From IMG/VR virus record IMGVR_UViG_3300037466_000352: DNA of 53,705 bases; one strand, 5' to 3'. A program made the position numbers and the translations under genes. The DNA comes from a virus (lineage: Duplodnaviria > Heunggongvirae > Uroviricota > Caudoviricetes). Positions 699 through 16,732 of the stretch are shown here, in pieces. The notes under the pieces were generated by a model that searched no databases, was not told the DNA's origin, and saw only the letters and a program-made list of their open reading frames with translations. How positions within the stretch are numbered: the stretch's first letter is position 1; every line of letters starts with the position of its first letter.

Positions 699-2585
699 AT
701 GTTTATGCTCTCACCCGGCGTGAATGTTCAGGAATACGATGCTACCAACATCGTTCCGGCAGTCGCTACTACGGCTGGCGGCTTCGCTGGGACATTCCAG
801 TGGGGTCCGGTTGAACAAGTCACGACTGTGGACAGTGAAACGACCCTGGCAAAAGTGTTCAAGGGTCCGAATGACGATACTGCGGTTTCGTTCTTCACGG
901 CTGCAAACTTCCTTGCATACGGCAACAACCTTCAAGTTGTGCGTGTGGCTGGCGCGACTGCGGTCAATGCGGTTGCATCCGGTACACCTGTCCTCATCAA
1001 AAACTCAGATTCATATCAAGCAAACTATTCGAGCGGTCAAGGCGCTGTTGGCATCGCTGCTGCAAAGTATCCTGGTGTACTCGGTAACACACTGAAGGTG
1101 TCGATTGCCAATGCTGCTGCATACTCGCAAACTCTGAACGGCACGGTCACGACTACGGCGAATAGCGCGGCAGTCACGGGCGTCAGCACTACGTTTGACA
1201 CACAAGTGGTTCCTGGTACGTTCCTGTACACCACGGACGGCAAGCTGATCGGCCAAGTTGCTTCAGTGACATCGGCTACGGCGCTCGTTCTGAAATCACC
1301 GGCTGCACAAGTTGTGACTGGTGTGAACGTTCGTGCAGATTGGGAATTCAAGTCAAGCTTTTCGGGCGCACCGAATACGTCGGATTGGGTGAAGAATCTG
1401 TCTGGCCTGAACGATGAAGTTCACGTTGTCGTGGTTGACGTGAAGGGTGTCTTCACTGGCACACCGAACACGGTCCTCGAAACGTATCCATACGCATCGG
1501 TTGCAAATGACGCGAAGAAGGACGATGGTTCAACCAACTACTACAAGGCGCTCCTGAACGGTTCGTCGCAGTATGTATGGTGGATGGGTCATCCGACTGC
1601 GGGCACCAATTGGGGTCAACCATCGGCAGGTAACTCGTTCGCGCAACTCACGAAGCCGGAAACAGCACAACTGATCGGTGGTCTGTCTGATGACACGCTG
1701 ACCGACGCAATGGCTATCACTGGCTACACGATGTTCCAGAACGGCGAAGTAGTTGACGTGTCGTTGATTCCGCTCGGTGGTGCATCGTTGACGGTCGCTC
1801 AGTTCGTGATCCAAGACGTAGCTGAAGCACGTAAAGATTGTGTGGCATTCGTGTCACCACAACTCGCGTCTGTCGTGAACAACGTGGGTTTCGAAGCATC
1901 AAGCATCATCAACGACCGCAACACACTAAACGTTGCCTCTTCGTATGGTGTGATGGACACCGGCTGGAAGTATCAGTACGACCGTTATAACGACGTGTAC
2001 CGCTGGATTCCGCTGAACGGTGACATCGCTGGCCTGTGCGCACGTACTGACCAAACGAACGATCCGTGGTGGTCGCCTGCGGGCTTCAACCGTGGTCAGA
2101 TCAAGAACGTCATCAAGCTTGCATACAGCCCGAATCAGACAGATCGTGATCTGTTGTATCCGGTGGGTATCAACCCGGTGGTCACGTTCAAGGGCGAAGG
2201 AACGATCCTGTTCGGTGACAAGACGCTTCTCGCGAAGCCGTCGTCATTCGACCGTATCAATGTCCGTCGTCTGTTCATCGTGCTTGAAAAGGCGATTGCA
2301 ACGGCTTCGAAGTATCAACTCTTCGAATTCAACGATGCGTTCACGCGTGCGCAGTTCCGTTCGTTCGTCGAACCGTTCCTGCGTGATGTGACCGGTCGTC
2401 GCGGCATCCAAGACTTCTTGGTGGTGTGTGACGATTCGAACAACACGCCTGAAGTGATCGATGGCAACCGCTTCCGCGCTTCGATCTACATCAAGCCTGC
2501 ACGCAGCATCAACTTTATCGAACTGCAATTCATTAGCACGCCTACTGGTGCGCAGTTCTCCGAAGTGGTCGGCATCGCTGGCTAA
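699..2585 (+). CDS. gp18: tail sheath protein
   Basis: LSPGVNVQEYD N-terminus, WWSPAGFNRGQI, GDKT and RINVRRLFI motifs. Confidence 0.97.
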   Translation: MFMLSPGVNVQEYDATNIVPAVATTAGGFAGTFQWGPVEQVTTVDSETTLAKVFKGPNDDTAVSFFTAANFLAYGNNLQVVRVAGATAVNAVASGTPVLIKNSDSYQANYSSGQGAVGIAAAKYPGVLGNTLKVSIANAAAYSQTLNGTVTTTANSAAVTGVSTTFDTQVVPGTFLYTTDGKLIGQVASVTSATALVLKSPAAQVVTGVNVRADWEFKSSFSGAPNTSDWVKNLSGLNDEVHVVVVDVKGVFTGTPNTVLETYPYASVANDAKKDDGSTNYYKALLNGSSQYVWWMGHPTAGTNWGQPSAGNSFAQLTKPETAQLIGGLSDDTLTDAMAITGYTMFQNGEVVDVSLIPLGGASLTVAQFVIQDVAEARKDCVAFVSPQLASVVNNVGFEASSIINDRNTLNVASSYGVMDTGWKYQYDRYNDVYRWIPLNGDIAGLCARTDQTNDPWWSPAGFNRGQIKNVIKLAYSPNQTDRDLLYPVGINPVVTFKGEGTILFGDKTLLAKPSSFDRINVRRLFIVLEKAIATASKYQLFEFNDAFTRAQFRSFVEPFLRDVTGRRGIQDFLVVCDDSNNTPEVIDGNRFRASIYIKPARSINFIELQFISTPTGAQFSEVVGIAG

Positions 2586-2634
2586 TCTGGTGATCTGAGA
2601 GGACGGGGACTTTGATCCCCGTTCTGCGTTTGCA

Positions 2635-2642
2635 CCTAAATA
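2635..2642 (+). promoter_or_regulatory. late promoter (CCTAAATA)
   Basis: TAAATA core upstream of gp19, after a GC hairpin at ~2602-2624. Confidence 0.65.
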
Positions 2643-2669
2643 TTCAAAACCCTATTCGGAGTACGATAA

Positions 2670-3239
2670 ATGGCTGATACAGTCTACTTCAACGTGGACC
2701 AGTTCAAGGCACAACTGGCTGGTGGCGGCGCTCGTCCGAACCAGTTCTTCGTGCAACTCACTTTCCCGTCTTCGGTCACTCTTGGCGCACTGGCTATCCA
2801 GTCATCGCCATTCTTGGTGACTGCTGCGACGATGCCGGGTTCACACATCGGTGCTGCTGTTGCGATGTACCGTGGTCGTGAAGTCCCTATGGCTGGTGAT
2901 CGTGTGTTCGCACCTTGGACCATCAATGTCCTGAACGACAACAACTTCACGATTCGCAATGCCCTCGAAGATTGGATGAACCAAATGAACGATCTTCAGA
3001 ACGCATCGGGCGAATTGAGTCCTGCTAAGTATCAGGCGGATATGCTTGTTACTCAGTTGAACCGTAACAACCAACCGCTAAAGACGTATCAAATTCGTGG
3101 CGCATTCCCGATTGATGTTTCGGAATCGCAACTGGACTTTGGCGCGAATGACCAAATCTCGCAGTTCAACGTGACGTTCCGTTACCAAGACTACAAGACG
3201 ACATTCACGCCGCTGGCAGGCATCATCTCTGGTGGTTAA
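2670..3239 (+). CDS. gp19: tail tube protein
   Basis: GGGARPNQF, AGDRVFAPWTINVLND, AFPIDVS motifs; follows sheath. Confidence 0.96.
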   Translation: MADTVYFNVDQFKAQLAGGGARPNQFFVQLTFPSSVTLGALAIQSSPFLVTAATMPGSHIGAAVAMYRGREVPMAGDRVFAPWTINVLNDNNFTIRNALEDWMNQMNDLQNASGELSPAKYQADMLVTQLNRNNQPLKTYQIRGAFPIDVSESQLDFGANDQISQFNVTFRYQDYKTTFTPLAGIISGG

Positions 3240-3241
3240 TA

Positions 3242-4936
3242 ATGCAAATCTTCGGTTTCTCTATCGGCGGTAAAGGAAAGAAGCTCGCTCAAGAAGTAGA
3301 ACAGCGTCTTCCTTCTTTTGCTGCACCTGTTGACGATGACGGCGCATCTACCGTATCCAATGCGGTCGGTCACTTCGGTACGTTCATCGATCTTGACGGG
3401 GCCGCTAGGACGGAATCGGAACTGATTTCTCGGTATCGTGAGACGGCGAAATACCCGGACTGCGATACCGCGATTGAAGAAGTGTGTTCCGAAGCCATCG
3501 CTACCGAAGATGACGAAGAAGTAGTCAAACTCAATCTTGACGATGTTCCCTTGTCGAAGAACATTCGCGGCATCATCGAAGAAGAGTTTGACGAAATCCT
3601 GAATCTACTGGATTTTGATAGTCGGGCACACGATATCTTCCGTCGCTACTACGTCGATGGTCGAGTGTATTACCACAAGCTGTTCGACCCGAAGAATCCG
3701 GGTGCTGGCATTCAGGAACTTCGGTACGTCGATCCCCGCAAGATCAAGAAGGTGCGCGAAGTCGAAAAGAAGAAGGACGAAACGACCGGTGTCGAAATCT
3801 ACACTAAGGTCATTGACTACTTCGTCTATTCAGAGAACGGCTTCTCTCGCAACAACGGCTACACAGCCCCAAACAATACGGCACAGGGCATCAAGATTGC
3901 CCCCGAAGCCATCACCTATGTTACGTCGGGTCTGATCGATCTGGACCGTAACATCGTCCTCGGCCACTTGGACAAGGCTATCAAGCCTACCAACATGCTT
4001 CGTATGGCCGAGGACTCGATGCTGATCTACCGCATGGCCCGTGCGCCAGAACGTCGCGTGTTCTACGTTGACGTTGGCAACTTGCCGAACAACAAGGCGG
4101 AACAGTATCTAAAGAACATCATGAACCGTTTCCGCACGAAGATCGTCTATGACGCTTCGACTGGCGAGATGCAGGACGACCGGAAACACATGTCCATGAT
4201 GGAAGACTTTTGGCTTCCTCGTCGTGAAGGTGGTCAAGGTACGCAAGTCGATACACTCGAAGGTGCGCAAAACCTTGGCGTGGTTGATGATATCAACTAC
4301 TACCAAACGAAACTGTACAACGCACTGAACGTTCCGGTGTCGCGCATGCAAGGCGGCAATCCGTTGAACTTTGGTCGTCAGATGGAAGTCACGCGGGACG
4401 AACTGAAGTTCGCGAAGTTCATCTCTCGTCTGCGCCGCAAGTTCTCTGAAGTCTTCGATGATCTGTTGAAGACACAACTAGTCCTCAAGGGTGTAATCAC
4501 CCCGGAAGATTGGGATGAAGCGATCAAGCCGAAGATCAAGTATGTCTTTGCTTCTGACATCTATTGGGCAGAAGCAAAAGAGATTGAGAACCTTCGTAAT
4601 CGCGTGGAAATCCTCACGGAACTCGATCCATACATCGGTGTGTATTACAGCAAGGAATGGGTTCGCAAGAACGTGCTGAAGCAATCCGATGAAGAGATTG
4701 ATGAAATCGATTCTCAGATCGAAGCAGAACGTGAAGTGATGGCAAGCGACGCAGAATTCGTGGGCCAACTCGCAGCAGCAAAAGAAATGCCAACCATGCA
4801 GGCACAAGCAGATGTTCAGACTGACCAACAGATGAACATGATGAATGCACAAGCCAAGACAGACATGGCAATGCAAAAGCAAGCGGCTGCACTCGCTTCA
4901 AGCCAACCGGCTAAGAAGAAACCCTCGAAGAAATAA
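3242..4936 (+). CDS. gp20: portal protein
   Basis: IYRMARAPERRVFYVDVGNLP, MEDFWLPRREGG, RDELKFAKFI motifs. Confidence 0.97.
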   Translation: MQIFGFSIGGKGKKLAQEVEQRLPSFAAPVDDDGASTVSNAVGHFGTFIDLDGAARTESELISRYRETAKYPDCDTAIEEVCSEAIATEDDEEVVKLNLDDVPLSKNIRGIIEEEFDEILNLLDFDSRAHDIFRRYYVDGRVYYHKLFDPKNPGAGIQELRYVDPRKIKKVREVEKKKDETTGVEIYTKVIDYFVYSENGFSRNNGYTAPNNTAQGIKIAPEAITYVTSGLIDLDRNIVLGHLDKAIKPTNMLRMAEDSMLIYRMARAPERRVFYVDVGNLPNNKAEQYLKNIMNRFRTKIVYDASTGEMQDDRKHMSMMEDFWLPRREGGQGTQVDTLEGAQNLGVVDDINYYQTKLYNALNVPVSRMQGGNPLNFGRQMEVTRDELKFAKFISRLRRKFSEVFDDLLKTQLVLKGVITPEDWDEAIKPKIKYVFASDIYWAEAKEIENLRNRVEILTELDPYIGVYYSKEWVRKNVLKQSDEEIDEIDSQIEAEREVMASDAEFVGQLAAAKEMPTMQAQADVQTDQQMNMMNAQAKTDMAMQKQAAALASSQPAKKKPSKK

Positions 4937-4942
4937 CCGTCA

Positions 4943-4972
4943 TCCCGATCAGGGTAAATATTCTGATCGGGA
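4943..4972 (+). promoter_or_regulatory. late promoter GGTAAATA enclosed in a 10-bp inverted repeat
   Basis: TCCCGATCAG-ggtaaatatt-CTGATCGGGA. Confidence 0.6.
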
Positions 4973-4991
4973 ATAACCTCAAGGTTTAAAC

Positions 4992-5312
4992 ATGGAAGAC
5001 ATCAAGAAAGGCGCGTTCCACGCGTGGCTTGGTAAGCCAGAAAGTGAACCCATCACTCAAGCTGACATCGATAAGGGTCTGGCATCGGATGATGAACACG
5101 TTCGCAAGATGGCGCAGTTCGCCAAGAACGAAGAACACTGGCAACACGAATCGGTTCAACCTTCGTTCATCGAGCATGTATTCACCAAGGACTACACCAA
5201 GGCAGAAGACGTGTTCAGGAAGGTGATGGCCGAGAAAATGAGTGCTGCACTTGGCGCACGTCGTATCGAACTCGCACAAACCCTCTACTCGCGCGTCCAA
5301 GGGGCTGAATAA
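4992..5312 (+). CDS. prohead core protein, gp67-like
   Basis: Position between gp20 and gp21; C-terminal helical FRKVMAEKMSAALGARRIELAQTLY segment. Confidence 0.6.
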   Translation: MEDIKKGAFHAWLGKPESEPITQADIDKGLASDDEHVRKMAQFAKNEEHWQHESVQPSFIEHVFTKDYTKAEDVFRKVMAEKMSAALGARRIELAQTLYSRVQGAE

Positions 5313-5893
5313 TGAACTTCGCCGAATTCCGTAAGAAGAACGAAGAACAAGCCCCACACACGGCAGAGACTTCACAACCTGCGGATGCGAAGGTCGCGAA
5401 CGGCGAGACTGAGAAGGAACACCAAAACAAAGACCTTCTGAAGATGAAGGGCGACAAGACAGTTTGGATTCCTCGCGGTCCCAAGATTCAAGCACCCGGT
5501 CTATCCGATGATGCAGTGACCGAAGCGAAATCGCATCACAAGGTCAAGATTCACTTCGGTAATGGCAAGACGGAAGAACGTCTTGTCGATGATGACGAAC
5601 TTGGTGTCATCAAGCGCAATCAACGAGTGACGAAAGTCGTTCATCTTGGTCGTTCAAAGGCCAATGGCAAACTGATCGAATACGTTCTCGAAGAAGCGAA
5701 TGCCGAAGTCGTATTCAAACACAAGGATGGTCGCAAGGCGATCATCAATAGCTACAAGTATGCCGATCCTTCTCTTGGTGTGGATCATTACGTCCATATC
5801 CAGAACTCTCGGGCCACAGTGTATCCGGGTGACGAAGGTTTGAACAAGGCACACAAGCTGTTGAAGAAACTTGGTTTCCAAAAGGCTGAATAA
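5312..5893 (+). CDS. prohead core/internal head protein (gp68-like position)
   Basis: Synteny; MNFAEFRKKNE leader and internal VTE/A, LEE/A candidate gp21 cleavage sites. Confidence 0.45.
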   Translation: MNFAEFRKKNEEQAPHTAETSQPADAKVANGETEKEHQNKDLLKMKGDKTVWIPRGPKIQAPGLSDDAVTEAKSHHKVKIHFGNGKTEERLVDDDELGVIKRNQRVTKVVHLGRSKANGKLIEYVLEEANAEVVFKHKDGRKAIINSYKYADPSLGVDHYVHIQNSRATVYPGDEGLNKAHKLLKKLGFQKAE

Positions 5894-5895
5894 CA

Positions 5896-6282
5896 ATGAC
5901 AGCAATCGTTCAAACAGTTCTAAAGAACACGCACACCGAAACCGTGGTGAAGATCACGGGTACTGGTAGTGCGTCGATCCCATTGGCATCACTTGCCTTT
6001 GGTGACGAAACATACGATGCGACGAAGGCGGCGGTGACGATCCGCAAGGCATACATCTATGCACCGCCAACACAAGAAACGACTGTCACTCGCAATGCAG
6101 TAAGCGTGCTTCAGATTTACGGCACGGCTACGGTGTTCGACGAATCGTTCACGGTAAGCGATCAAGCAAACCAAGACATCTCAGTGACTACGGCTGGTGA
6201 TGGTACGGTGATTCTGGTTCTTCGCAAGGCCGGTGGATTCGACTATCCGTATCGCGCTGACAACCTGACACAAGGTGCGTAA
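5896..6282 (+). CDS. hypothetical head-module protein
   Basis: Coupled ORF directly upstream of gp21. Confidence 0.55.
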   Translation: MTAIVQTVLKNTHTETVVKITGTGSASIPLASLAFGDETYDATKAAVTIRKAYIYAPPTQETTVTRNAVSVLQIYGTATVFDESFTVSDQANQDISVTTAGDGTVILVLRKAGGFDYPYRADNLTQGA

Positions 6283-6935
6283 TGAAGCTGATTACTGAAC
6301 TCTATGACGAAGTTGAACTGCTTACCGAAGGCACTGGCGATAAGAAGGACCTCTACATCGTCGGTAAATTCGCGCAGTCGAACATCGTCAACCGCAACAA
6401 ACGGAACTATCCGAAGCCACACATGGAATCTGCGATTGCGAAGTACGTAGATCAGTATGTGACAAAGAATCGTGCTCTCGGTGAACTGAATCACCCACAA
6501 CGTATGGGTGTTGATCCCGAACGTGCCTGCATGCTAATCAAAGAATTGACATGGGAAGGTAATGACGTTATCGGTAAGGCGAAAATCCTTACTGAAGGCG
6601 TCGGTAAAGTCGTTCGTGGTCTTATTCTTGATGGGGTAAATATCGGTGTCTCCACACGTGGTGGTGCTTCTGTTTCACTGCGTGAAGGTGTCACTTATGT
6701 TGGTCCTGACTTGACGTTCACCGCTATCGATGTTGTTACCGATCCGAGTGGTCCTGACTGCTTTGTGAACGGCATCATGGAAGGTGTTGAGTGGATTTGC
6801 GAATCTGGTGTCTGGCGAATGGAAAAGATCGAACAGGCACGAGAAATCATCAAAGACACACCTAGCGCAAAGCTCCCACAGATGACTATCGACATTTGGG
6901 AAAGCTTCTGCGGAAAGCTTCAGAACCTCAAGTAA
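6282..6935 (+). CDS. gp21: prohead protease
   Basis: MKLITE start, NRNKRNYP, ALGELNHP, GVSTRG, DVVTDPS motifs. Confidence 0.96.
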   Translation: MKLITELYDEVELLTEGTGDKKDLYIVGKFAQSNIVNRNKRNYPKPHMESAIAKYVDQYVTKNRALGELNHPQRMGVDPERACMLIKELTWEGNDVIGKAKILTEGVGKVVRGLILDGVNIGVSTRGGASVSLREGVTYVGPDLTFTAIDVVTDPSGPDCFVNGIMEGVEWICESGVWRMEKIEQAREIIKDTPSAKLPQMTIDIWESFCGKLQNLK

Positions 6936-6953
6936 TCTCAAAACTTTGCTTTT

Positions 6954-6961
6954 ACTAAATA
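6954..6961 (+). promoter_or_regulatory. late promoter (ACTAAATA)
   Basis: Upstream of gp22. Confidence 0.7.
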
Positions 6962-7000
6962 TATTTCGTACACGGTAAAAGCATACCACAAGGATACACA

Positions 7001-7981
7001 ATGTCACTGGAACAAAAGATCACAACGCTGCTTGCGGAACGCGCGACGCTTCCGATCAGCAACATGGACAACGGTGATCGCACCGAAGTCGATCAAGGTA
7101 GTTCGGGCAAGCCTGAAGTCACGGAACTAGACAAGGACAACTCGGGCGCTTCTGCTGCTGCACCGATTGCACCGGCTGAAGCTGCAAAGACGATTGGCAT
7201 GAAGGGCGACGCTGCTTCAGTCAAGACGCAAGCACAAGAAGCAACGAAGGAAACTCTCGCTGCTGATGTTGCTGCGATCTTCGAAGGTCAAACTGGTCTT
7301 GCAGAAGGTTTCGTCGAGAAGGCTACGTCGTTGTTTGAAGCTGCTGTTGTTGCCCGTACGACTGTCGAAGTCGAGAAGGCACGTGAAGCGCTGACAGAAC
7401 AAGCGAAGACGGAACTCGAAGCTGCTAAAGCGAAGCTTGCCGAAGATGTCGATGCCTACATGTCGTACGTTGTCGAATCGTGGCTGAAGGAAAACAAGAT
7501 CGCGGTTGACGCTGGTCTTCGTACCGAAATCGCAGAATCGTTCATCAACGGTCTGAAAGACCTGTTCGTTGAAAACTATATCGAAGTGCCGGAAGACAAG
7601 GTGAATGTGGTCGAAAGCCTGTCAACGGACCTCGAAGCAACCAAATCGCGTCTGAATGAAGAAATCGAGAAGTCGATTGCTCTGTCAGACAAGATCGTTG
7701 AACTCGAAAAGTCTGCTGTTCTCGAATCAGCGGCAAAGGGTTTGGCTGCAACAGACGCAGAACGTCTGGCGAAGCTGACCGAAGGTGTCGAGTTTGACAG
7801 CAAAGAATCTTTCGCTGAGAAGGTCGCAGTCATTAAAGAAGCACACTTCAAGACTGCACCGAAGAAGTCGGCAGAAAAGATTTTGGCAGAGCAAACCGAT
7901 GGTTCACAGCTTGACACACAAGTGGTCACGCCGTCGATCCAACGCTACGTGAGCGCTCTCAAAGGTAACACCCGGTTCTAA
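7001..7981 (+). CDS. gp22: prohead scaffold/core protein
   Basis: YMSYVVESWLKENKIAVDAGLRTEIAESFINGLKDLFVENYIEVPEDK motif. Confidence 0.95.
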   Translation: MSLEQKITTLLAERATLPISNMDNGDRTEVDQGSSGKPEVTELDKDNSGASAAAPIAPAEAAKTIGMKGDAASVKTQAQEATKETLAADVAAIFEGQTGLAEGFVEKATSLFEAAVVARTTVEVEKAREALTEQAKTELEAAKAKLAEDVDAYMSYVVESWLKENKIAVDAGLRTEIAESFINGLKDLFVENYIEVPEDKVNVVESLSTDLEATKSRLNEEIEKSIALSDKIVELEKSAVLESAAKGLAATDAERLAKLTEGVEFDSKESFAEKVAVIKEAHFKTAPKKSAEKILAEQTDGSQLDTQVVTPSIQRYVSALKGNTRF

Positions 7982-8004
7982 AGTGTTCTGAAAATCTCAG
8001 AAAT

Positions 8005-8012
8005 ACTAAATA
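8005..8012 (+). promoter_or_regulatory. late promoter (ACTAAATA)
   Basis: Upstream of gp23. Confidence 0.7.
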
Positions 8013-8048
8013 ACTAGGTAAAAGCAAAATTTCCTCTTAGGGGTATCA

Positions 8049-9377
8049 ATGTTTAACATCACTGAATCAATCGGCGCGAAGTGGGCACCCGTTCTCGATG
8101 CTGAAGGCGTGGCACCGATCCGTGACGCACACAAGCGTGCGGTCGTGACGAAGCTGCTTGAAAACCAAGAACAAGAAATGATTAAAGAGCGTAAGGCGCT
8201 CTTTGAAGATGCACCGACGAACAACATCGGCGCTGGTTCGGATCAGAACGGTATCGCTAAGTTCGACCCGATCCTCATCTCGCTGGTTCGCCGTGCAATG
8301 CCGCAACTGATTGCGTACGACGTTTGTGGCGTGCAGCCGATGTCCGGTCCTACGGGCCTGATCTTCGCAATGCGTTCGAACTTCGGTACGGATCGCAACA
8401 TGGCAACGCGTACTGAAGCGTTCATCAACGGTGGTAACAGCGCGTTCTCGGGTACGGGTACGGATGCTGGTACGAACCCGGCAGTGCTGAACGACGCAAC
8501 TCCTGGCACGTACACACGTGGCACGGGTCTGGCGACGGCTTCTGCTGAAGCGTTGGGTACGTCTGGCGGCGGTGTGTTCGAAGAAATGAACTTCACCATC
8601 GAAAAGACGACAGTGACGGCTAAGAGCCGCGCACTGAAGGCTGAGTACACCATCGAACTCGCACAAGACTTGAAGGCAGTTCACGGTCTTGACGCAGAAG
8701 GCGAACTGTCGAACATCCTTTCGCACGAAATCATGTTCGAACTTAACCGCGAAGTCATCCGCACGATCTACCAAGTTGCAAAGCCGGGTAGCCTGACGAC
8801 GACGACTCCGGGCACGTTTGACCTTGACGTTGACTCGAATGGCCGTTGGTCAGTCGAACGCTTCAAGGGTCTGGTGTTCCAGATCGAACGCGATGCAAAC
8901 GTGATCGCGCAAGACACCCGTCGCGGTAAGGGTAACTTCATCATCTGCTCGGCAGACGTGGCATCGGCACTGGCTATGGCTGGTATGCTCGATACGGGTC
9001 GCGCTCTGCAAGGTGGTGACGCCCTGCAAGTTGACGACACAGGCAATACCTTCGCGGGTATCCTGAACGGCAAGTACAAGGTCTTCATCGATCCGTACTC
9101 GGCGAACCTCGGCGCGGCAGAACAGTTCTATGTGGTTGGCTACAAGGGCCAATCAGCATACGATGCTGGCCTCTTCTACGCACCGTACGTGCCGCTGCAA
9201 ATGCTGCGTGCTGTCGATCCGCAAAGCTTCCAACCGAAGATTGCGTTCAAGACGCGTTACGGCATGATCGCGAACCCGTTCGTTACGGGCACCGATGGTC
9301 GCACACCGGATGCGGACACCTTCACGGCGAACCGCAACCAGTACTACCGTCGCAGCCGCGTTCTGAACCTGCTGTAA
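8049..9377 (+). CDS. gp23: major capsid protein
   Basis: LVRRAMPQLIAYDVCGVQPMSGPTGLIFAMR, SRALKAEY, GLFYAPYVPL motifs. Confidence 0.98.
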   Translation: MFNITESIGAKWAPVLDAEGVAPIRDAHKRAVVTKLLENQEQEMIKERKALFEDAPTNNIGAGSDQNGIAKFDPILISLVRRAMPQLIAYDVCGVQPMSGPTGLIFAMRSNFGTDRNMATRTEAFINGGNSAFSGTGTDAGTNPAVLNDATPGTYTRGTGLATASAEALGTSGGGVFEEMNFTIEKTTVTAKSRALKAEYTIELAQDLKAVHGLDAEGELSNILSHEIMFELNREVIRTIYQVAKPGSLTTTTPGTFDLDVDSNGRWSVERFKGLVFQIERDANVIAQDTRRGKGNFIICSADVASALAMAGMLDTGRALQGGDALQVDDTGNTFAGILNGKYKVFIDPYSANLGAAEQFYVVGYKGQSAYDAGLFYAPYVPLQMLRAVDPQSFQPKIAFKTRYGMIANPFVTGTDGRTPDADTFTANRNQYYRRSRVLNLL

Positions 9378-10306: not shown

Positions 10307-10747
10307 ATGAAGCTAGAAGATGTACAAAAGGATTGGGAGAAGGATTCTATCATAGACCAGACGAACCTCGGCTATGAAGCTACCAGGAATCCTCTTCTGC
10401 ACAGCAAGTATCTGAACAAGTTGTCAAACGTCAAGCTGCTGTTGCGAAAGGCCGAAGTCGATTACCTGAAGTTGCGCAAGGACAAGTATCGGTACTTCAA
10501 GGGTGAGATGACCAGGGATGAACTGGAATCCAGACAATGGGTTCAATACCAAGGTCGTGTGCCGCTGAAGACCGAGATGGAAGAGTACCTTACCACTGAC
10601 CACGACATGATCCGGTTGACAGACAAGATCGAATATCTGAAGGTCGTCAAGGAAACACTAGAGTCGATTTTGAAGGCTCTGGCGTCACGTGGATGGGAAA
10701 TCAAGTCCGCTATCGAGTGGGAAAAGATGCGGAACGGTTTGATGTAA
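10307..10747 (+). CDS. uvsY: recombination mediator
   Basis: W..DS.ID...L..E..RNPLLHSKYL and RGWEIKSAIEW motifs. Confidence 0.92.
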   Translation: MKLEDVQKDWEKDSIIDQTNLGYEATRNPLLHSKYLNKLSNVKLLLRKAEVDYLKLRKDKYRYFKGEMTRDELESRQWVQYQGRVPLKTEMEEYLTTDHDMIRLTDKIEYLKVVKETLESILKALASRGWEIKSAIEWEKMRNGLM

Positions 10748-10926: not shown

Positions 10927-11727
10927 ATGGCAACCACACAGCAAACCAAGCCGAACTTCGGCGGGCAGAACGCTGTTGTTCTGAAGCCGCTCAATCTGGG
11001 AACGGTGGGCGGTCTTCGTACACGTCGCACATCGGAACAGGTTCTTCAAGCCAAGATCAAGCGTCAGCAAGATTTGGCCGAGAAGGCGCAGAAGCGAGCA
11101 CAGCTTTTTCAACAACGGCAAGAACGAGCCGCACAACGTGCGGCCAAGGCCGAAGAGAAGGCACGTGAAATCGCAGAAGCAGCAGTACGTAAGCAACAGG
11201 AGGAAGCGGATCAGCGGGCCGCAGAAGAGGCCCAACGCGCCGCGATTCAATCTGGGGCCGACGTGCATGCAGCCGAATCGAAGCCGTCTACGATCATGGT
11301 TGTCGAAAAGACACCTGAAGTCGAAAAGACGCTGAAGGACATCACGCGGGACTTTGATCGATTCTACAAGCACATCTTTGACACGTATGGTGTTCAGTTC
11401 GAAGGGACTGTTCCCGAACTTGTCAAGCGGGGCTACATCTCCGTGAAGATGCGCGGCTACCTGCAACCGCAACGCAAGCCGGTGGAACCGACATCGACCG
11501 ACACGGGTATCGCTCGCGAAGCCGTTCGCTTCATGCAGTTCTACAAAACTGTCGGATTGACCCCGGCGTGGTTGAACAAGGAAGTGCGGATCAAGGACGA
11601 TTCGAACATCTACGTCCTGACCGGTCTGCGCGGCAAGGCCCATTCCGTGGTGCTGCGTCGCAAGGACGATCCGGCACAGGCGTTCACCATCGCGGCGGCG
11701 GACTTTAAGAAGGTGTTGCAGCCCTGA
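10927..11727 (+). CDS. hypothetical protein with charged coiled-coil N-half
   Basis: GGAGAG RBS before ATG 10927; TTGACA at 10851. Confidence 0.7.
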   Translation: MATTQQTKPNFGGQNAVVLKPLNLGTVGGLRTRRTSEQVLQAKIKRQQDLAEKAQKRAQLFQQRQERAAQRAAKAEEKAREIAEAAVRKQQEEADQRAAEEAQRAAIQSGADVHAAESKPSTIMVVEKTPEVEKTLKDITRDFDRFYKHIFDTYGVQFEGTVPELVKRGYISVKMRGYLQPQRKPVEPTSTDTGIAREAVRFMQFYKTVGLTPAWLNKEVRIKDDSNIYVLTGLRGKAHSVVLRRKDDPAQAFTIAAADFKKVLQP

Positions 11728-11801: not shown

Positions 11802-11845
11802 AGGCCGATCTGCATACATAAAAGTTGCAGATCGGCCTCTTTTTG
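11802..11845 (+). terminator. intrinsic terminator
   Basis: AGGCCGATCTGCA-loop-TGCAGATCGGCCT followed by CTTTTTG. Confidence 0.75.
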
Positions 11846-11849
11846 TGCC

Positions 11850-11857
11850 CATAAATA
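11850..11857 (+). promoter_or_regulatory. late promoter (CATAAATA) for the ART cassette
   Basis: 27 nt upstream of ATG 11884. Confidence 0.65.
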
Positions 11858-11883
11858 TTGACAAATTCCTAAAAGGGTGCTAG

Positions 11884-12705
11884 ATGCTGAAATTCAAACA
11901 ATTCGTGACAGAGCAAGCAAAGCCTGTCGAACAGGGGAAGGTAGACGCATCCGGCCTTCCGTGTGCTCTCGTCAACTGGCGTAGAAACGGCGCTATTGGC
12001 CCGGACGGCGTTCCCGCTGCCCTGATAACCAAGCCCACTCGCAAGCCCGTCCAAGAGAAGATGGACGCGCCAGAAACCCACGAACACCTTGGCGGCTACT
12101 ATGGCGACAAAGAAGAATGGGATGAAAAGTGGGATAACCATATGCCCGGTCATGAACTCCATGACCATTTGGTGAAAACGGACAAGTCTGCCGGTCGAGA
12201 CATTGAGGATGTGAAATCCTACACGCGCGATTCCTCATCGCTGAACCGGCATCTGTACAACCGTCACGTCGATGGTGAACAGCACGACGATACGGTGAAG
12301 AGCATCAACGTCAAGTCCTTCGACAAGACTGTTGGTCGGAATAAGCTGAAGCACGATATGCACGTCTATTCTGGTGTCACGTGGCATCCGGGCGAAGTTG
12401 CCAAGCAACACCCAGACCGACACGTCCATCTACCTGCATACACGTCTACGACGCTTTCCAAGGATGTCGCACACTCGTTCGCCACGGGCGACAGTGAAAA
12501 CGCAACACACGTGATCCACTTCCATCTGAAGAAGGGGCAACCGGGCAAGTACGTCGAGCACCACACCGAGAATCCTGGCGAACACGAATTCATCATGCCT
12601 CGAAACACGACCATCAAGATTCATCCACGTCCTGATCGCTATGAGGATGCGATTAGCGGCAATGTGACACACGTCTGGCACGCACACGTGGTAAGCAAAG
12701 AATGA
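11884..12705 (+). CDS. ADP-ribosyltransferase, Alt/VIP2-like (R-S-E class, R replaced by S), with capsid-targeting-like leader
   Basis: YTRDSSSLNRHL, HVYSG, AYTSTT, GEHEFIMPRNT; leader MLKFKQFVTE. Confidence 0.8.
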   Translation: MLKFKQFVTEQAKPVEQGKVDASGLPCALVNWRRNGAIGPDGVPAALITKPTRKPVQEKMDAPETHEHLGGYYGDKEEWDEKWDNHMPGHELHDHLVKTDKSAGRDIEDVKSYTRDSSSLNRHLYNRHVDGEQHDDTVKSINVKSFDKTVGRNKLKHDMHVYSGVTWHPGEVAKQHPDRHVHLPAYTSTTLSKDVAHSFATGDSENATHVIHFHLKKGQPGKYVEHHTENPGEHEFIMPRNTTIKIHPRPDRYEDAISGNVTHVWHAHVVSKE

Positions 12706-13370
12706 AGACCTTCAAACAGTTCAGAATTGACGAAGCACAGGCCACGGAAGACATCAAGCAGATGACCTTCTACCACGGCACTACCAAGCGTGAACATGCC
12801 CTTGGAATCGCTAAGAACGGCATCCAGCCGGGTGTCACGAAAGAGAAGCCCGGTAAGAATGGTATGATGACACCGGTCGTGGGGAAGACCTATGCAACAC
12901 CACACATCGGTTATGCACAGACGTATGCACTCGGTGGTGCTGTTGCGGGTTCGAAGACCGGTGGCGACTGGCTGAAGAAGTCGCACGGTGAACACGGTTA
13001 TGTCTTCGCGATCCACGGTCATGAACTCGGTCACGTGCAGCCAGACGAAGACAGCGTTGGTGAAGCGGTCCACAAGGGCACACATGGCTGGCTGAACCAT
13101 ATGGCACGTACACACCTGACGGACGGCCAGCAACGGCGTATCAAGGACGGTGAGTACGCAGAGTACGCACGGTCTGGGAAGAAGCTTGTGAAGAAGATGT
13201 CGGATAGTGAGAAGCTATCTCTGATCCGTGGCGGCGCACACGTCGCGCATGAAGGCCCGTTGAAGCCGCACGCGGTCTATCGCATCCATCGTGACAAGAT
13301 TCCGCTTCTCAAAGATGATGGTTCGAACTTCTTCGACCACGCAGAGAAGATTGATCCGAAGGACATCTAA
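12702..13370 (+). CDS. ADP-ribosyltransferase-fold protein, H-Y-D/E class, with capsid-targeting-like leader
   Basis: FYHGTT...IAKNGIQPG, KTYATPHIGYAQTYA, YVFAI, QPDED; leader MKTFKQFRIDE. Confidence 0.62.
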   Translation: MKTFKQFRIDEAQATEDIKQMTFYHGTTKREHALGIAKNGIQPGVTKEKPGKNGMMTPVVGKTYATPHIGYAQTYALGGAVAGSKTGGDWLKKSHGEHGYVFAIHGHELGHVQPDEDSVGEAVHKGTHGWLNHMARTHLTDGQQRRIKDGEYAEYARSGKKLVKKMSDSEKLSLIRGGAHVAHEGPLKPHAVYRIHRDKIPLLKDDGSNFFDHAEKIDPKDI

Positions 13371-14113
13371 TGAAGACGTTCACACAGTTCATCAAAGAAG
13401 GCACAGACATGGGAGCCGTGGTCAACGGTGTCCCGTGTGCTGTGGCCGAATTCCCACGCAAGAAGGTCAGTGAACAGTTCCCACATTGGGTCGGTAAGGG
13501 CCATGAAGGCGACACCAATGACTTCCTTGACTCGAATGACAACGAGGAACACGGTGGCGTCTCTGGCGTTCACGAAAGCCTGTCTGCACACGATCATCAC
13601 GACGAGCAAGATGAATCTAATGTCCACTGGTACACGGCGAACTCACGACAGCGCAACGAGTACTTGTATCGTTCGCACGTGCAAGGGAATCCAGTTAAGG
13701 CCAAGACATCGATGGACGAAACGTTAGAGAAGAATCGTCTACCGCACGATCTGCATGTGTACTCGGGCGTCAATTGGAATCCCGGTGATGTCTCGGCGAA
13801 GCACTCAGAAGGACACGTGCATCTCCCGGCCTACACGTCCACATCAACCGATCCAGAAGTGGCCCACTCGTTCGCTCGGGACCACGCCGAGGCAGAACAC
13901 GGTAGTGCAGACGAACACCATGTGATCCACTTCCACCTGAAGAAAGGTCAGCAAGGTAAATATGTCGGTCACACATCCGAAGTCCCTAATGAGAGTGAAT
14001 ACATCTTGCCTCGGAACACGACGATCAAGGTACACCCAAAGCCGGATGTCTATACGCACCCATACAACGACGAGAAAACGTTTGTGTGGCATGCGCATCC
14101 GGTTTCAGAATAA
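13370..14113 (+). CDS. ADP-ribosyltransferase, Alt/VIP2-like paralog of 11884..12705
   Basis: HVYSG, AYTSTS, HVIHFHLKKGQ, NESEYILPRNT; leader MKTFTQFIKE. Confidence 0.8.
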   Translation: MKTFTQFIKEGTDMGAVVNGVPCAVAEFPRKKVSEQFPHWVGKGHEGDTNDFLDSNDNEEHGGVSGVHESLSAHDHHDEQDESNVHWYTANSRQRNEYLYRSHVQGNPVKAKTSMDETLEKNRLPHDLHVYSGVNWNPGDVSAKHSEGHVHLPAYTSTSTDPEVAHSFARDHAEAEHGSADEHHVIHFHLKKGQQGKYVGHTSEVPNESEYILPRNTTIKVHPKPDVYTHPYNDEKTFVWHAHPVSE

Positions 14114-14115
14114 AC

Positions 14116-14140
14116 AAAAGCCCGCCAAGTGCGGGCTTTT
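14116..14140. terminator. bidirectional intrinsic terminator between the ART and ARH units
   Basis: AAAAGCCCGC-caagt-GCGGGCTTTT. Confidence 0.85.
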
Positions 14141-14143
14141 GCG

Positions 14144-14254
14144 TTATAGAACTCGGAGACTTCGATACCACGTCTTACATTGCGGACACCACAGGGTTCC
14201 ATCGAGCCATTTGAATCCGGCGCAGCACTTCTTTTCCTGGTTAGACGTGTTCAT
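14144..14254 (-). CDS. 36-aa Cys-rich peptide (possible Zn ribbon)
   Basis: MNTSNQEKKCCAGFKWLDGTLWCPQCKTWYRSLRVL; overlaps the ARH 3' end and stops at the terminator. Confidence 0.5.
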   Translation of the reverse strand: MNTSNQEKKCCAGFKWLDGTLWCPQCKTWYRSLRVL

Positions 14255-15137
14255 GAAGTTCCAGTAGGTCTTGCACGTAGCGATTGTCAAGGGAAGGTTG
14301 AATGAATTCCATCCACTCGCGCGGAAGGTCTTCCAGACCGAATACGAGGGCCGCTATGCCGCCGACGACACACGCGTTCGTGTCGGTATCGCCGCCGTAC
14401 AGAATCGCCCTCTTGATCGATTCTGCGAAGCTGTTGGTGTGCTCGATACAGTCCTTGACGATGTTCAAGGTGTCGATCACATAGCCAGACCCGAAGTCCT
14501 GCTGGTCCGGGTTTGGGGACCATTCAAGAAGTTCTGCAACCAGACCCCACAGGGTTTGAAACGTCTCGGGGGTGATCTTGGTAGGCTGATCCGCGATCAT
14601 CCGTGCCAAGAGGCAATAGAACTGACACGACTTGATGGCTTCTTCACTGTTGTGTGTGATAGCGCTACACTGCCACGCCATGACCTTCATCGAGTCGATG
14701 TCCGTCGCCAGAAATGCAATCGGCAGGACTCGCATCAACGAACCATTCCCCGACATCCGTTCATCATGAATCTTGATGTCGTTGTGGCGTGCGTAATACA
14801 AAAGCTGGCTGGCGGTCTGCATACCTTCATCGAACTGACGACCGCTGACCCAATACTTCCCGTTCCGCCACAAGATCAAGTCTTGATAGAACGGGTTCGG
14901 GTCTGCCGGGTGTTCGCTGAAGTTCGCGTCCACACAAAGCTGTTGACTGAAGTCGTCTGAATAGACGCCCAGCGGTACACCATACGTCTTGTATTCGGTG
15001 TCGATACTGCATGGGTGGTCGATGTAGCTCGGGTTGATCGCATGGTCCGACTTGAACTCATGCGGCACACCCAACGCATCCCCGATCAACGCGCCCAGCA
15101 TGGCGGTCTGCTTCCTGTTCAGCTTGGTCACGTCCAT
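14241..15137 (-). CDS. ADP-ribosylglycohydrolase (DraG/ARH family)
   Basis: GALIGDALG, YSDD, GNGSLMR, GGDTDTNA motifs; GGAG RBS; TGGACA-N17-TATGTT upstream (15197-15169). Confidence 0.92.
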   Translation of the reverse strand: MDVTKLNRKQTAMLGALIGDALGVPHEFKSDHAINPSYIDHPCSIDTEYKTYGVPLGVYSDDFSQQLCVDANFSEHPADPNPFYQDLILWRNGKYWVSGRQFDEGMQTASQLLYYARHNDIKIHDERMSGNGSLMRVLPIAFLATDIDSMKVMAWQCSAITHNSEEAIKSCQFYCLLARMIADQPTKITPETFQTLWGLVAELLEWSPNPDQQDFGSGYVIDTLNIVKDCIEHTNSFAESIKRAILYGGDTDTNACVVGGIAALVFGLEDLPREWMEFIQPSLDNRYVQDLLELHEHV

Positions 15138-15190
15138 CGCTGATTCTCCTGACTAAGTAGTGGGTAGAAACATAACACAAACCCACACGA

Positions 15191-16732
15191 ATGTCCACAG
15201 TTGATATTGAAATCTTTCCCAAGGATGCGAACTACGTCCGCGTCAAGTGTTCTCCCGACATTGCGCATGAATTGTCGCAGCACTTCTCGTTCGAAGTTCC
15301 CGGCGCAAAGTTCTCGAAGCTGTACAAGACAGGCGCATGGGATGGTCGTACAAAGTTGTTCAACAAGATGACCAGGGAAATCTATTACGGATTGGTCCCC
15401 TACATCTTCAAGTACGCCAAGGACTGTGGATACACGGTTCTCGATCACGCAAGCCTGCCGGAAACCGAACACATCACCTACGAATTGATCGAGAAGTTCA
15501 TGCACGCCCTGAAGCTTCACAGTCAGGGCAAGCCCATCGAAATTCGAGATTACCAGATCGAGGCCATTGTCACAGCACTCCGATATAACCGCCGCCTGCT
15601 GCTGTCGCCTACCTCTTCGGGTAAGTCGCTCATCATCTACGGTATCGTGCGCTGGTACAGCCTACAGAGTAAAAAATTCCTGTTGCTTGTACCCAACAAA
15701 AGCCTTGTGGCCCAACTGTTCAAGGACTTTGCCGACTACTCGTCCGAAAACGGCTGGGATGTCGAGGCCAACTGCCACATGATCTATGGCGGTCAAGAAA
15801 AAGTTTCAAGCAAGCCCATCATTATATCAACATGGCAATCGTTGTACAAGATAGGGAAAGGCATACCTAAAGCTGGACGGGTCGAGTCCGATATACCTAC
15901 CAACTACTTCGATCAATTCGACGTGGTGATTGGGGACGAAGCCCACTTGTTTAAGGCTGCGTCGATTGTTGGCATCATGACTCGTTGCGGAAACGCAACA
16001 AAGCGAATCGGTACGACCGGGACGTTGGACGGGTCCGAGACGAACAAGTTGGTATTGGAAGGTCTTTTCGGTACGGTTCACCGGGTCACGACGACCAAGG
16101 AACTGATGAAGACCGGACAAGTTGCAGACCTCACAATCAAGGTGTTGCAACTGGTGTACCCAGATGCAGTAAGGAAAGCGGCAAAGGACCTGAAGTACGA
16201 CCAGGAACTTGAATACATCACCACAAATCCGGCGCGCAACCGCTTTATCACAAATCTAGCGGTAGCGCAAGAAAAAAATACTCTCATTTTGTTTCAGCAC
16301 GTAGCACACGGCCAGAAACTCTATGATAGTATTACCGATGTGGTCGGAGATAATCGGAAAGTTTTTCTGGTCTACGGCGACACGGAACTGAATGATCGAG
16401 AGTTGGTGCGGTCACTGACGGAGAAGAGCGAAGGCGTAATCATCATCGCGTCTTACGGAACTTTTTCGACAGGCGTCAACGTTCGGAACATCCACAACGT
16501 TATCTTTGCGTCCCCGAGTAAGAGTAGGGTTCGTAACTTGCAGTCGATAGGGAGAGGTTTGCGTCTGGGGGTAGGCAAATTGGCATGTACGCTGTACGAC
16601 ATCGCCGACGACCTCTCATGGAAGAAAAGAAAGAATTACACGCTTTTGCACATGGTTGAACGGCTGAAAATCTATGCCGAAGAGAAGTTGACGTACAAAA
16701 TCATTCAAGTACCATTTGGGACCGGAATATGA
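15191..16732 (+). CDS. uvsW: DNA helicase (SF2)
   Basis: FSFEVPGAKF, WDG, SPTSSGKS, GDEAH, GTTGT, QSIGRGLR. Confidence 0.96.
   Translation: MSTVDIEIFPKDANYVRVKCSPDIAHELSQHFSFEVPGAKFSKLYKTGAWDGRTKLFNKMTREIYYGLVPYIFKYAKDCGYTVLDHASLPETEHITYELIEKFMHALKLHSQGKPIEIRDYQIEAIVTALRYNRRLLLSPTSSGKSLIIYGIVRWYSLQSKKFLLLVPNKSLVAQLFKDFADYSSENGWDVEANCHMIYGGQEKVSSKPIIISTWQSLYKIGKGIPKAGRVESDIPTNYFDQFDVVIGDEAHLFKAASIVGIMTRCGNATKRIGTTGTLDGSETNKLVLEGLFGTVHRVTTTKELMKTGQVADLTIKVLQLVYPDAVRKAAKDLKYDQELEYITTNPARNRFITNLAVAQEKNTLILFQHVAHGQKLYDSITDVVGDNRKVFLVYGDTELNDRELVRSLTEKSEGVIIIASYGTFSTGVNVRNIHNVIFASPSKSRVRNLQSIGRGLRLGVGKLACTLYDIADDLSWKKRKNYTLLHMVERLKIYAEEKLTYKIIQVPFGTGI

Follow-up and report, generated by a model that had tools for sequence, protein, structure and literature searches.

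What would a phage gain from encoding, next to one another, a set of ADP-ribosyltransferases (ARTs) that seem destined for its capsid and an enzyme that removes ADP-ribose? The question is raised by a locus in a 53,705-nucleotide (nt) stretch of viral DNA (IMG/VR record IMGVR_UViG_3300037466_000352; the window hereafter means this whole stretch), in which three consecutive open reading frames (ORFs), designated ART1, ORF2 and ART3, face a convergent gene for an ADP-ribosylhydrolase (ARH). Based on the gene content of the window the phage was assigned to the T4-like myoviruses as a distant member, and its genome is known from metagenomes only, as a 172.9-kb contig. The answer that we favour, with modest confidence, is that the three proteins are writers packaged in the head and injected into the next host, while the hydrolase serves as their enzymatic eraser and as immunity. 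This answer draws on the gene structure, the protein folds and motifs, the portability of an N-terminal leader, the conservation of promoters and terminators, and the genomic linkage of the two kinds of genes. Related phages are referred to by locus (L) or genome (G) numbers where they have to be told apart.

Organization of the locus

The gap between uvsY and uvsW holds a closed transcription unit composed of a terminator, the T4-late-type promoter motif CATAAATA, three coupled ORFs and a bidirectional terminator. All sequence features that an initial annotation, made from the DNA alone, had listed for the locus were confirmed to be present (positions refer to the window; aa, amino acids):

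6282-6935, + strand: gp21-type prohead protease (phrog_207 head maturation protease, 2.4e-61), outside the ART cassette
10307-10747: uvsY
11803-11837, + strand: upstream intrinsic terminator (hairpin of -25.7 kcal/mol, z-score -6.0, followed by a U run)
11850-11857, + strand: T4-late-type promoter motif CATAAATA, 27 nt before the first ATG
11884-12705, + strand: ART1, 273 aa
12702-13370, + strand: ORF2, 222 aa
13370-14113, + strand: ART3, 247 aa
14116-14140, both strands: bidirectional intrinsic terminator (-18.9 kcal/mol on the + and -21.0 kcal/mol on the - strand, z-scores -4.9 and -5.7, U runs on both strands)
14241-15137, - strand: DraG/Tri1-like hydrolase (ARH), 298 aa, convergent with the ART cassette
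15169-15197, - strand: sigma70-like promoter of the hydrolase gene (TGGACA-N17-TATGTT with an extended TG, 9 of 12 matches)
15191-16732: UvsW helicase gene, divergent from the hydrolase gene

The three ORFs on the + strand were read as translationally coupled because their stop and start codons overlap (ATGA, TAATG).

Two transferases of the C3/VIP2/Alt type

ART1 and ART3 matched PF03496 (2.4e-14, 53.5 bits and 7.3e-12, 45.5 bits, respectively; cut-off 23.4 bits) and are paralogues, with 118 identical residues over a global alignment of 287 columns. The AlphaFold2 (AF2) model of ART3 (predicted local distance difference test score, pLDDT, 85) matched Plx2a at 3e-11 in Foldseek, followed by C3bot, Certhrax, VIP2 and CDTa. 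The STS and ExE motifs are found in both proteins (T187-S188-T189 and E233-x-E235 in ART1, T156-S157-T158 and E208-x-E210 in ART3), while the position of the catalytic Arg is occupied by S163 and S132, respectively, with the VYSG segment of ART3 aligned to the YRG of Vis and C3larvin. The initial assignment of two Alt/VIP2-type ARTs therefore stands with regard to family, fold, STS and ExE motifs, and needs amending for the R-S-E triad, whose Arg is replaced in both proteins.

No variation at E208, E210, S157 or the LPR motif (ART3 numbering) was seen among 27 family members, and very little at S132 and T156. In a larger collection of 98 family ORFs from viral contigs, the Arg position is Ser, Thr or His (in proportions that are biased, as the collection pattern favoured Ser), with Arg found only in an Alt-like outlier from phage S13. 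Judging from these alignments, the conservation of a non-Arg residue at this position is real. It could be taken to mean that ART1 and ART3 became dead pseudo-enzymes after losing the Arg and serve as structural or DNA-associated internal proteins, with the hydrolase acting elsewhere, and the unusually high His content of the two proteins (9.5% and 10.5%) would agree with such a role as well. The invariance of S157, of both ExE glutamates and of LPR, together with the near-invariance of T156, would however be unexpected in a dead enzyme. Moreover, Ser, Thr and His can all hydrogen-bond phosphate, His being the residue that H-Y-E enzymes have at the Arg-equivalent position, and the mature proteins are acidic to neutral (isoelectric points, pI, of 5.9 and 6.7), unlike the basic internal proteins of T4. 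We thus regard this pseudo-enzyme reading as very improbable, and expect both proteins to catalyse transfer despite the Arg-to-Ser change, onto target residues that the ExE motif suggests are probably arginines.

An H-Y-E-type protein between them

For ORF2 no match was obtained in Pfam, PHROG or NCBIfam, and its 70 homologues come almost all from uncultured phages, with one weak match among cultured ones. An AF2 model built with its own alignment reached a pLDDT of 91.7, and in an exhaustive VIA-align search with this model the top 50 rows were nearly all chains of the ART superfamily (Z 6.5-3.4). Other structure matches were ARTs in the PDB (Foldseek), DUF4433 (DarT) in AFDB at 1.1e-4, and a viral DarT/PARP cluster in the ESM Atlas with a template modelling (TM) score of 0.58, so that the structural neighbours include pertussis S1, TreX, KptA/Tpt1, DarT1, Scabin and PARPs. 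The scores are moderate (Z 6.5, TM 0.5-0.6) yet consistent, and it is for this consistency that ORF2 was assigned to the ART fold. By sequence, a search of the PDB gave only a marginal match to Tpt1 (E 0.25), and the YHGT segment of ORF2 was aligned to that of Tpt1.

Residues invariant in 29 sequences are H25-G26, Y64, Y71, Y75, P114-D-E-D117 and D206-G-S-N-F210, with T27 kept in ≥90% of them. The spacing of H25-G26-T27, Y64 and Y75 is typical of H-Y-E enzymes (two tyrosines about 11 residues apart), and the invariant PDED at 114-117, which follows a strand (111-114) in the model, is a candidate for the acidic catalytic site. We therefore predict ORF2 to be an ART-fold protein of the H-Y-E type (DarT/PARP/Tpt1-like); the H-Y-type ART core first proposed for the middle ORF agrees with the Foldseek, VIA, AFDB and Atlas matches alike. 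Its targets are possibly nucleic acids, and perhaps not substrates of the hydrolase.

Two observations concern the wider distribution of this family. An ORF2-family member with 47% identity and the same leader was found in an unrelated phage contig of about 107 kb (L005, 7001-7699), where neither an ART nor an ARH gene is present in the 7 kb around it, which indicates that the H-Y-E family also travels alone. In Bacillus phage G (L077), the gene for gp233 (1673-2350), whose fold matched that of ORF2 weakly (Foldseek E 1.2e-2), is transcribed divergently from that for the ARH gp234 (2452-3324), and the two may be another ART-like/ARH pair.

A portable leader resembling the T4 capsid-targeting sequence

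The three proteins start with MLKFKQFVTE (ART1), MKTFKQFRIDE (ORF2) and MKTFTQFIKE (ART3), leaders of about 10 residues that follow the pattern MK(T)F.QF..E and end in [IV]-x-Glu, as expected at a gp21 cleavage site. A six-frame scan of the window matched this motif at the three start codons only, and when the profile of the ORF2 family was compared to that of the ART family with hhalign, the N-terminal leader was the sole segment that aligned. ARTs from many unrelated contigs begin with this leader too, and the ART of one relative starts with MKKFNEFIAE. In T4, the capsid-targeting sequence (CTS) MKTYQEFIAE is removed by the prohead protease and is enough for foreign proteins to be packaged in heads (Mullaney and Black 1996, cited in PMC8442874; PMC3012670). 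The likeness to this sequence, noticed at the outset, is thus supported by the sequence given in PMC8442874, by the portability of the leader across unrelated cargo and by the presence of a gp21-type protease. The latter would be required for the proposed leader cleavage; its gene is located 5 kb upstream of the ART cassette, and its ortholog in L008 matches PF03420 (Peptidase_S77).

Within the same cassette, an MK(S/T)FKQF leader was also observed on a GNAT-like ORF (L003, 7663-8067, weak Pfam matches) and on a 74-aa ORF (L004, 8550-8774). As it is found on ART, ORF2, GNAT-like and 74-aa proteins, the leader seems, like the T4 CTS, to be a module that can be carried by varying cargo proteins, and its occurrence on a GNAT-like protein suggests that the locus delivers writers other than ARTs. 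This portability is the strongest available argument, an indirect one, for packaging, after which the leader would be cleaved off and the ARTs injected.

In another reading, the three proteins stay out of the head and act during late infection in the cell that produces them, their targets being for example proteins of the host or the phage, or nucleic acids, and the N-terminus that they share helps translation initiation or expression, or is left over from gene duplication. ModA and ModB of T4, which are ARTs that are not packaged (Iyer et al. 2022, PMC9503650), offer a precedent, and in tandem genes a duplication could have spread the 5' end. Such an explanation has to account for a leader that is common to unrelated folds (C3-like, H-Y-E-like, GNAT-like and the 74-aa ORF), that is the only alignable region between the two ART families, that comes close to an experimentally defined CTS and ends as expected for gp21, and that is found on ARTs in many unrelated contigs, and we consider it improbable.

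Two further features of the N-termini were recorded. A short motif, G-[VT]-P-x-A-[VLI]-V, follows the leader of the ARTs once or twice (window 11929-12010), several homologues having it in duplicate. More distant ART-family proteins (loci L045-L073; e.g., L045 4782-5573 and L056 9437-10705) start with MRLYEFLN, MRISEFED or MRVDDLFDD, which resemble the start of the gp21-type protease of the window (MKLITELYDE, 6282) and may represent another type of leader for head targeting or cleavage.

The hydrolase

The product of the convergent gene matched PF03747 over almost the whole model (positions 2-287 of 287; 7.9e-46, 157 bits, cut-off 26.2), and its motifs are intact (GDALG19, E27, S60-D61-D62, T161-H162 and GGDTDT248, with D250/D252/T253), in agreement with the DraG/ARH hydrolase initially proposed. 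Its best solved relatives in the PDB are Lmo0067, Tri1 (6dre) and DraG, with ARH3 matched at the C-terminal metal motif only; at the level of motifs, the metal ligands and the TH motif align with conserved blocks of Lmo0067 and Tri1. The NCBIfam scores for Tri1 (6e-25, 87.8 bits vs. a cut-off of 490) and DraG (4e-21, 75.3 bits vs. 337) are below the equivalog cut-offs, and the protein is best regarded as a member of the family, not as an ortholog of either. The alignment begins at residue 69 of Tri1, the N-terminal extension with which Tri1 plugs Tre1 being absent.

Arginine is the typical target of ExE ARTs, and ADP-ribosyl-arginine is what DraG and Tri1 hydrolyse. On this established knowledge, the ExE ARTs and a hydrolase of the DraG/Tri1 branch would fit each other chemically, and the hydrolase could be expected to act on the products of ART1 and ART3.

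Linkage of transferases and hydrolase in related phages

If the hydrolase serves the ARTs, the two should occur together in relatives, as the initial annotation had suggested checking, and they do: all 13 sampled contigs of this hydrolase clade (38-100% identity; counts without phylogenetic correction) carry an ART within 7 kb, in several architectures. In L001, L003, L004, L008, L013 and L014, which were found through homologues of ORF2 or the ARTs, the hydrolase is located in the same uvsY-uvsW gap, and the cargo of this gap in close relatives is variable, comprising between one and four ARTs and, in some of them only, ORF2 or a GNAT-like gene. Starting independently from hydrolase homologues with 38-55% identity, an ART was present within 3.5 kb in four out of four cases. 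Outside the uvsY-uvsW gap, one of these four pairs is found among baseplate genes (L075), and in L007 the ARH is 6.4 kb from a pair of ARTs. More distant ARHs are arranged as ARH-ART-ART on one strand, overlapping, behind rIIA/rIIB (L039) or are divergent from a full-length Alt (Cronobacter phage S13), and in Aeromonas phage phiAS5 an ARH stands beside a PARP-like protein of 1183 aa. In the window, the ARTs and the ARH are adjacent yet convergent and have separate promoters, whereas in L039 they are co-directional and overlap. Every PF03496 gene is in the cassette in three of four near-complete relatives, the fourth (G010) having one more elsewhere. The ART-ARH linkage is real and conserved, and a module of this kind has already been demonstrated by experiment in another phage (see below).

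The same data bear on the possibility that the hydrolase is a counter-defence against ART-based host defences or toxins, its adjacency to the ARTs being inherited synteny with no functional coupling. Phage erasers acting as orphan antitoxins are documented, since AdfN, a phage NADAR enzyme, counters DarT1 in this way (PMC11825919). The position of the ARH on the opposite strand under its own promoter would suit such a role, as would the ART-bearing genomes that can be without an ARH and the jumbo enterobacterial and Streptomyces phages, in which no annotated ART was found beside the ARH gene (a comparison of annotations only, which says little). On the other side, the pairing recurs in at least four genomic contexts or orientations, none of the 13 sampled contigs of the ARH clade is without an ART, and the nearest characterised homologues, Tri1 and DraG, reverse the marks of their cognate ART. 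We consider an independent counter-defence role improbable; among the functions that had been suggested for the hydrolase, undoing ADP-ribosylation by host defences is the least supported because the gene tracks the phage's own ARTs.

Transcription signals

The initial annotation had placed a late promoter before the three coupled ORFs, a bidirectional terminator between the convergent units and a sigma70-like promoter before the hydrolase gene, and each of these found support. The late motif is present in the same CATAAATA form upstream of the tail-sheath gene (628). The window has five ATAAATA, each of them intergenic and on the + strand, a count that is not significantly enriched (10 of 100 shuffles reach five). 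ATAAATATTGACA is kept before the cassette in L001, L003, L008 and L014, though the flanking hairpins have diverged, and NATAAATA is found 35-44 nt ahead of the ART cassettes in L006, L016 and L024. The case for the late motif rests on its placement and on its conservation in relatives, not on its count. The other three ATAAATA of the window (33469, 35749 and 38426) all have the form TATAAATAGA, whose downstream bases differ from the ART-cassette form ATAAATATTGACA, and are situated in a region of tRNAs and small genes. The TTGACA behind the late motif was dismissed as a possible -35 element of the cassette, because no usable -10 comes after it and transcription would start beyond the ATG. The terminator at 11803-11837 closes the upstream gene and isolates the cassette, with an equivalent hairpin before the cassette in relatives, while the hairpin between the convergent units is stable and has U runs on both strands.

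For the hydrolase gene, T[GT]GAC[AT], a spacer of 17-18 nt and TAnnnT make up the best upstream site in L001, L003, L008, L013, L014, L074 and L076, and the distance from the end of the -10 element to the ATG used is 29-33 nt (L003: 16 nt). In relatives whose hydrolases are 38-55% identical, this promoter scores 10-11 of 12, and its -10 hexamer varies at non-critical positions only. Since the element is conserved in position, transcription of the hydrolase gene by the host polymerase, and hence early in infection, is plausible. In the window, the -35 hexamer is the reverse complement of the start and second codon of uvsW (15191-15197), so the divergent hydrolase and uvsW genes share control sequence.

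Proposed course of infection

Taken as a 'head cargo' locus, the uvsY-uvsW gap would work as follows. The late promoter would drive the three coupled ARTs, whose leader would take them into the prohead core and would there be removed by the gp21-type protease. The mature ARTs would then be injected together with the DNA, and the next infection would begin with the modification of host targets by them. The hydrolase gene would be read from its sigma70-like promoter by the unmodified host RNA polymerase, with the consequence that the enzyme would accumulate from early infection and stay in the cell. There it would remove arginine-linked ADP-ribose and so limit in time the marks set by the injected ARTs, and it would also protect the producing cell, as an immunity enzyme, from the ART newly made there in large quantity late in infection.

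Several observations weigh against this scheme of injected writers and an eraser. The complete genomes G002 and G003 carry the same ART family but no ARH, Macro or NADAR gene, from which it follows that the eraser is not obligatory and that an antidote does not always accompany the ARTs; in G004 and G006 the ARH is about 30 kb away from the ART. Much of the linkage counted in the 13 contigs is synteny shared within one lineage. With Ser in place of the NAD-binding Arg, the activity or chemistry of ART1 and ART3 may differ from that of Alt, and a DraG-type enzyme is not expected to reverse the marks of the DarT/PARP-like ORF2 if these are set on nucleic acid. Finally, the ARH promoter of the window, with its 9 of 12 matches, is weak when taken alone, and its -35 is constrained by the coding sequence of uvsW.

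A more far-reaching version would see in the locus a programmed, reversible cycle of ADP-ribosylation, in which the injected writers, among them the uncharacterised C3-like clade with Ser, Thr or His for Arg and the new H-Y-E family, mark host proteins of transcription or translation, and possibly nucleic acid, within seconds, and the early hydrolase erases the arginine marks on a timer, thereby helping to drive the switch from early to later expression. The hydrolase would then be a regulator and not mere self-protection, which we consider on the unlikely side.

Comparison with known systems

The proposed route of late synthesis, head packaging, gp21 processing and injection is that of Alt and the internal proteins IPI-III of T4. 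The catalytic domain of the ARTs in the window belongs to PF03496, as does that of Alt, and their leader resembles the MKTYQEFIAE of the internal proteins. T4 Alt, a protein of about 680 aa, has retained the catalytic Arg and relies on no CTS of the internal-protein type, and T4 is not known to have a hydrolase of this family. The internal proteins of T4, in turn, are small basic non-enzymes or inhibitors, whereas the cargo carrying the CTS-like leader consists here of enzymes.

The initial supposition that such a two-class arrangement of ARTs with an eraser had not been described as one module is not borne out in that form, since both Bxa/BAH (PMC11699363) and the work of Iyer et al. 2022 (PMC9503650) precede it. 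Experiments on a prophage of Bacteroides stercoris have shown that BAH, a hydrolase encoded next to the MuF-fused arginine-directed ART Bxa, neutralises the latter (Alexei et al. 2024; PMC11699363). Bxa/BAH and the locus in the window both pair a phage ART that carries a capsid-targeting part and is encoded with head genes with an adjacent hydrolase of the ARH family; in the window the targeting part is a putative one, and the arginine specificity of Bxa and the reversal of its marks by BAH have predicted counterparts. They differ in that Bxa is a single MuF fusion encoded by a temperate phage, in which the hydrolase gene follows directly and immunity is also provided by a protein that binds (Bsi), while the T4-like phage studied here, a lytic one, has three separate small enzymes of two folds, a putatively cleavable leader of the T4 internal-protein type instead of MuF, and a convergent hydrolase gene under a sigma70-like promoter of its own. 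A counterpart of the binder Bsi was not identified.

Tre1/Tri1, an effector/immunity pair of the Serratia type VI secretion system, and DraT/DraG likewise combine an injected or regulated arginine ART with a hydrolase of the DraG fold that reverses its marks. Tre1 is delivered by the secretion system and not, as proposed here, by the phage head, and Tri1 has the N-terminal extension that is absent from the hydrolase of the window. By Iyer, Burroughs, Anantharaman and Aravind 2022, an ART-ARG pair of Aeromonas phages is read as a toxin-antitoxin system for superinfection exclusion, and many phage ARTs next to head genes are argued to be packaged (PMC9503650); in the sections consulted, no description was found of a cassette of several CTS-tagged ARTs, of the ORF2 family or of the clade with Ser/Thr/His for Arg. 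Distinctive for the present locus are hence the T4 internal-protein-type leader, the several small writers of two folds, the convergent and separately promoted eraser, the unannotated H-Y-E family and the Arg-less clade.

If the proposed reading proves right, the internal-protein route of T4 delivers batteries of post-translational writers in a distant, environmentally common T4-like lineage, these writers comprising two ART folds and, in one relative, an acetyltransferase-like protein, and such phages pair them with a dedicated eraser. It would also mean that a sizeable C3/VIP2-like clade has Ser, Thr or His for the textbook catalytic Arg and that about 70 unannotated proteins constitute an H-Y-E-type ART family. 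Both of these groups are good targets for enzymology, and the conserved leader offers a ready predictor of injected proteins in uncultured T4-like phages.

Genomic neighbourhood

Genes for tail sheath, tail tube, portal, gp21-type protease, scaffold and gp23-type capsid protein were identified at 699-9377. The capsid protein is ≤64% identical to that of any cultured phage, the nearest being Methylophilales phage Melnitz, cyanophages and a Pelagibacter phage, and a megablast of the region against cultured phages gave no match. Upstream of the ART cassette (10927-11727, + strand), a basic protein of about 266 aa (pI 9.9), rich in Lys, Glu and Ala, is bracketed by its own terminators. It showed no family match and no CTS-like leader, and it is kept as the upstream neighbour of the ART cassette in L001, L003, L008 and L074, with lengths of 222-285 aa.

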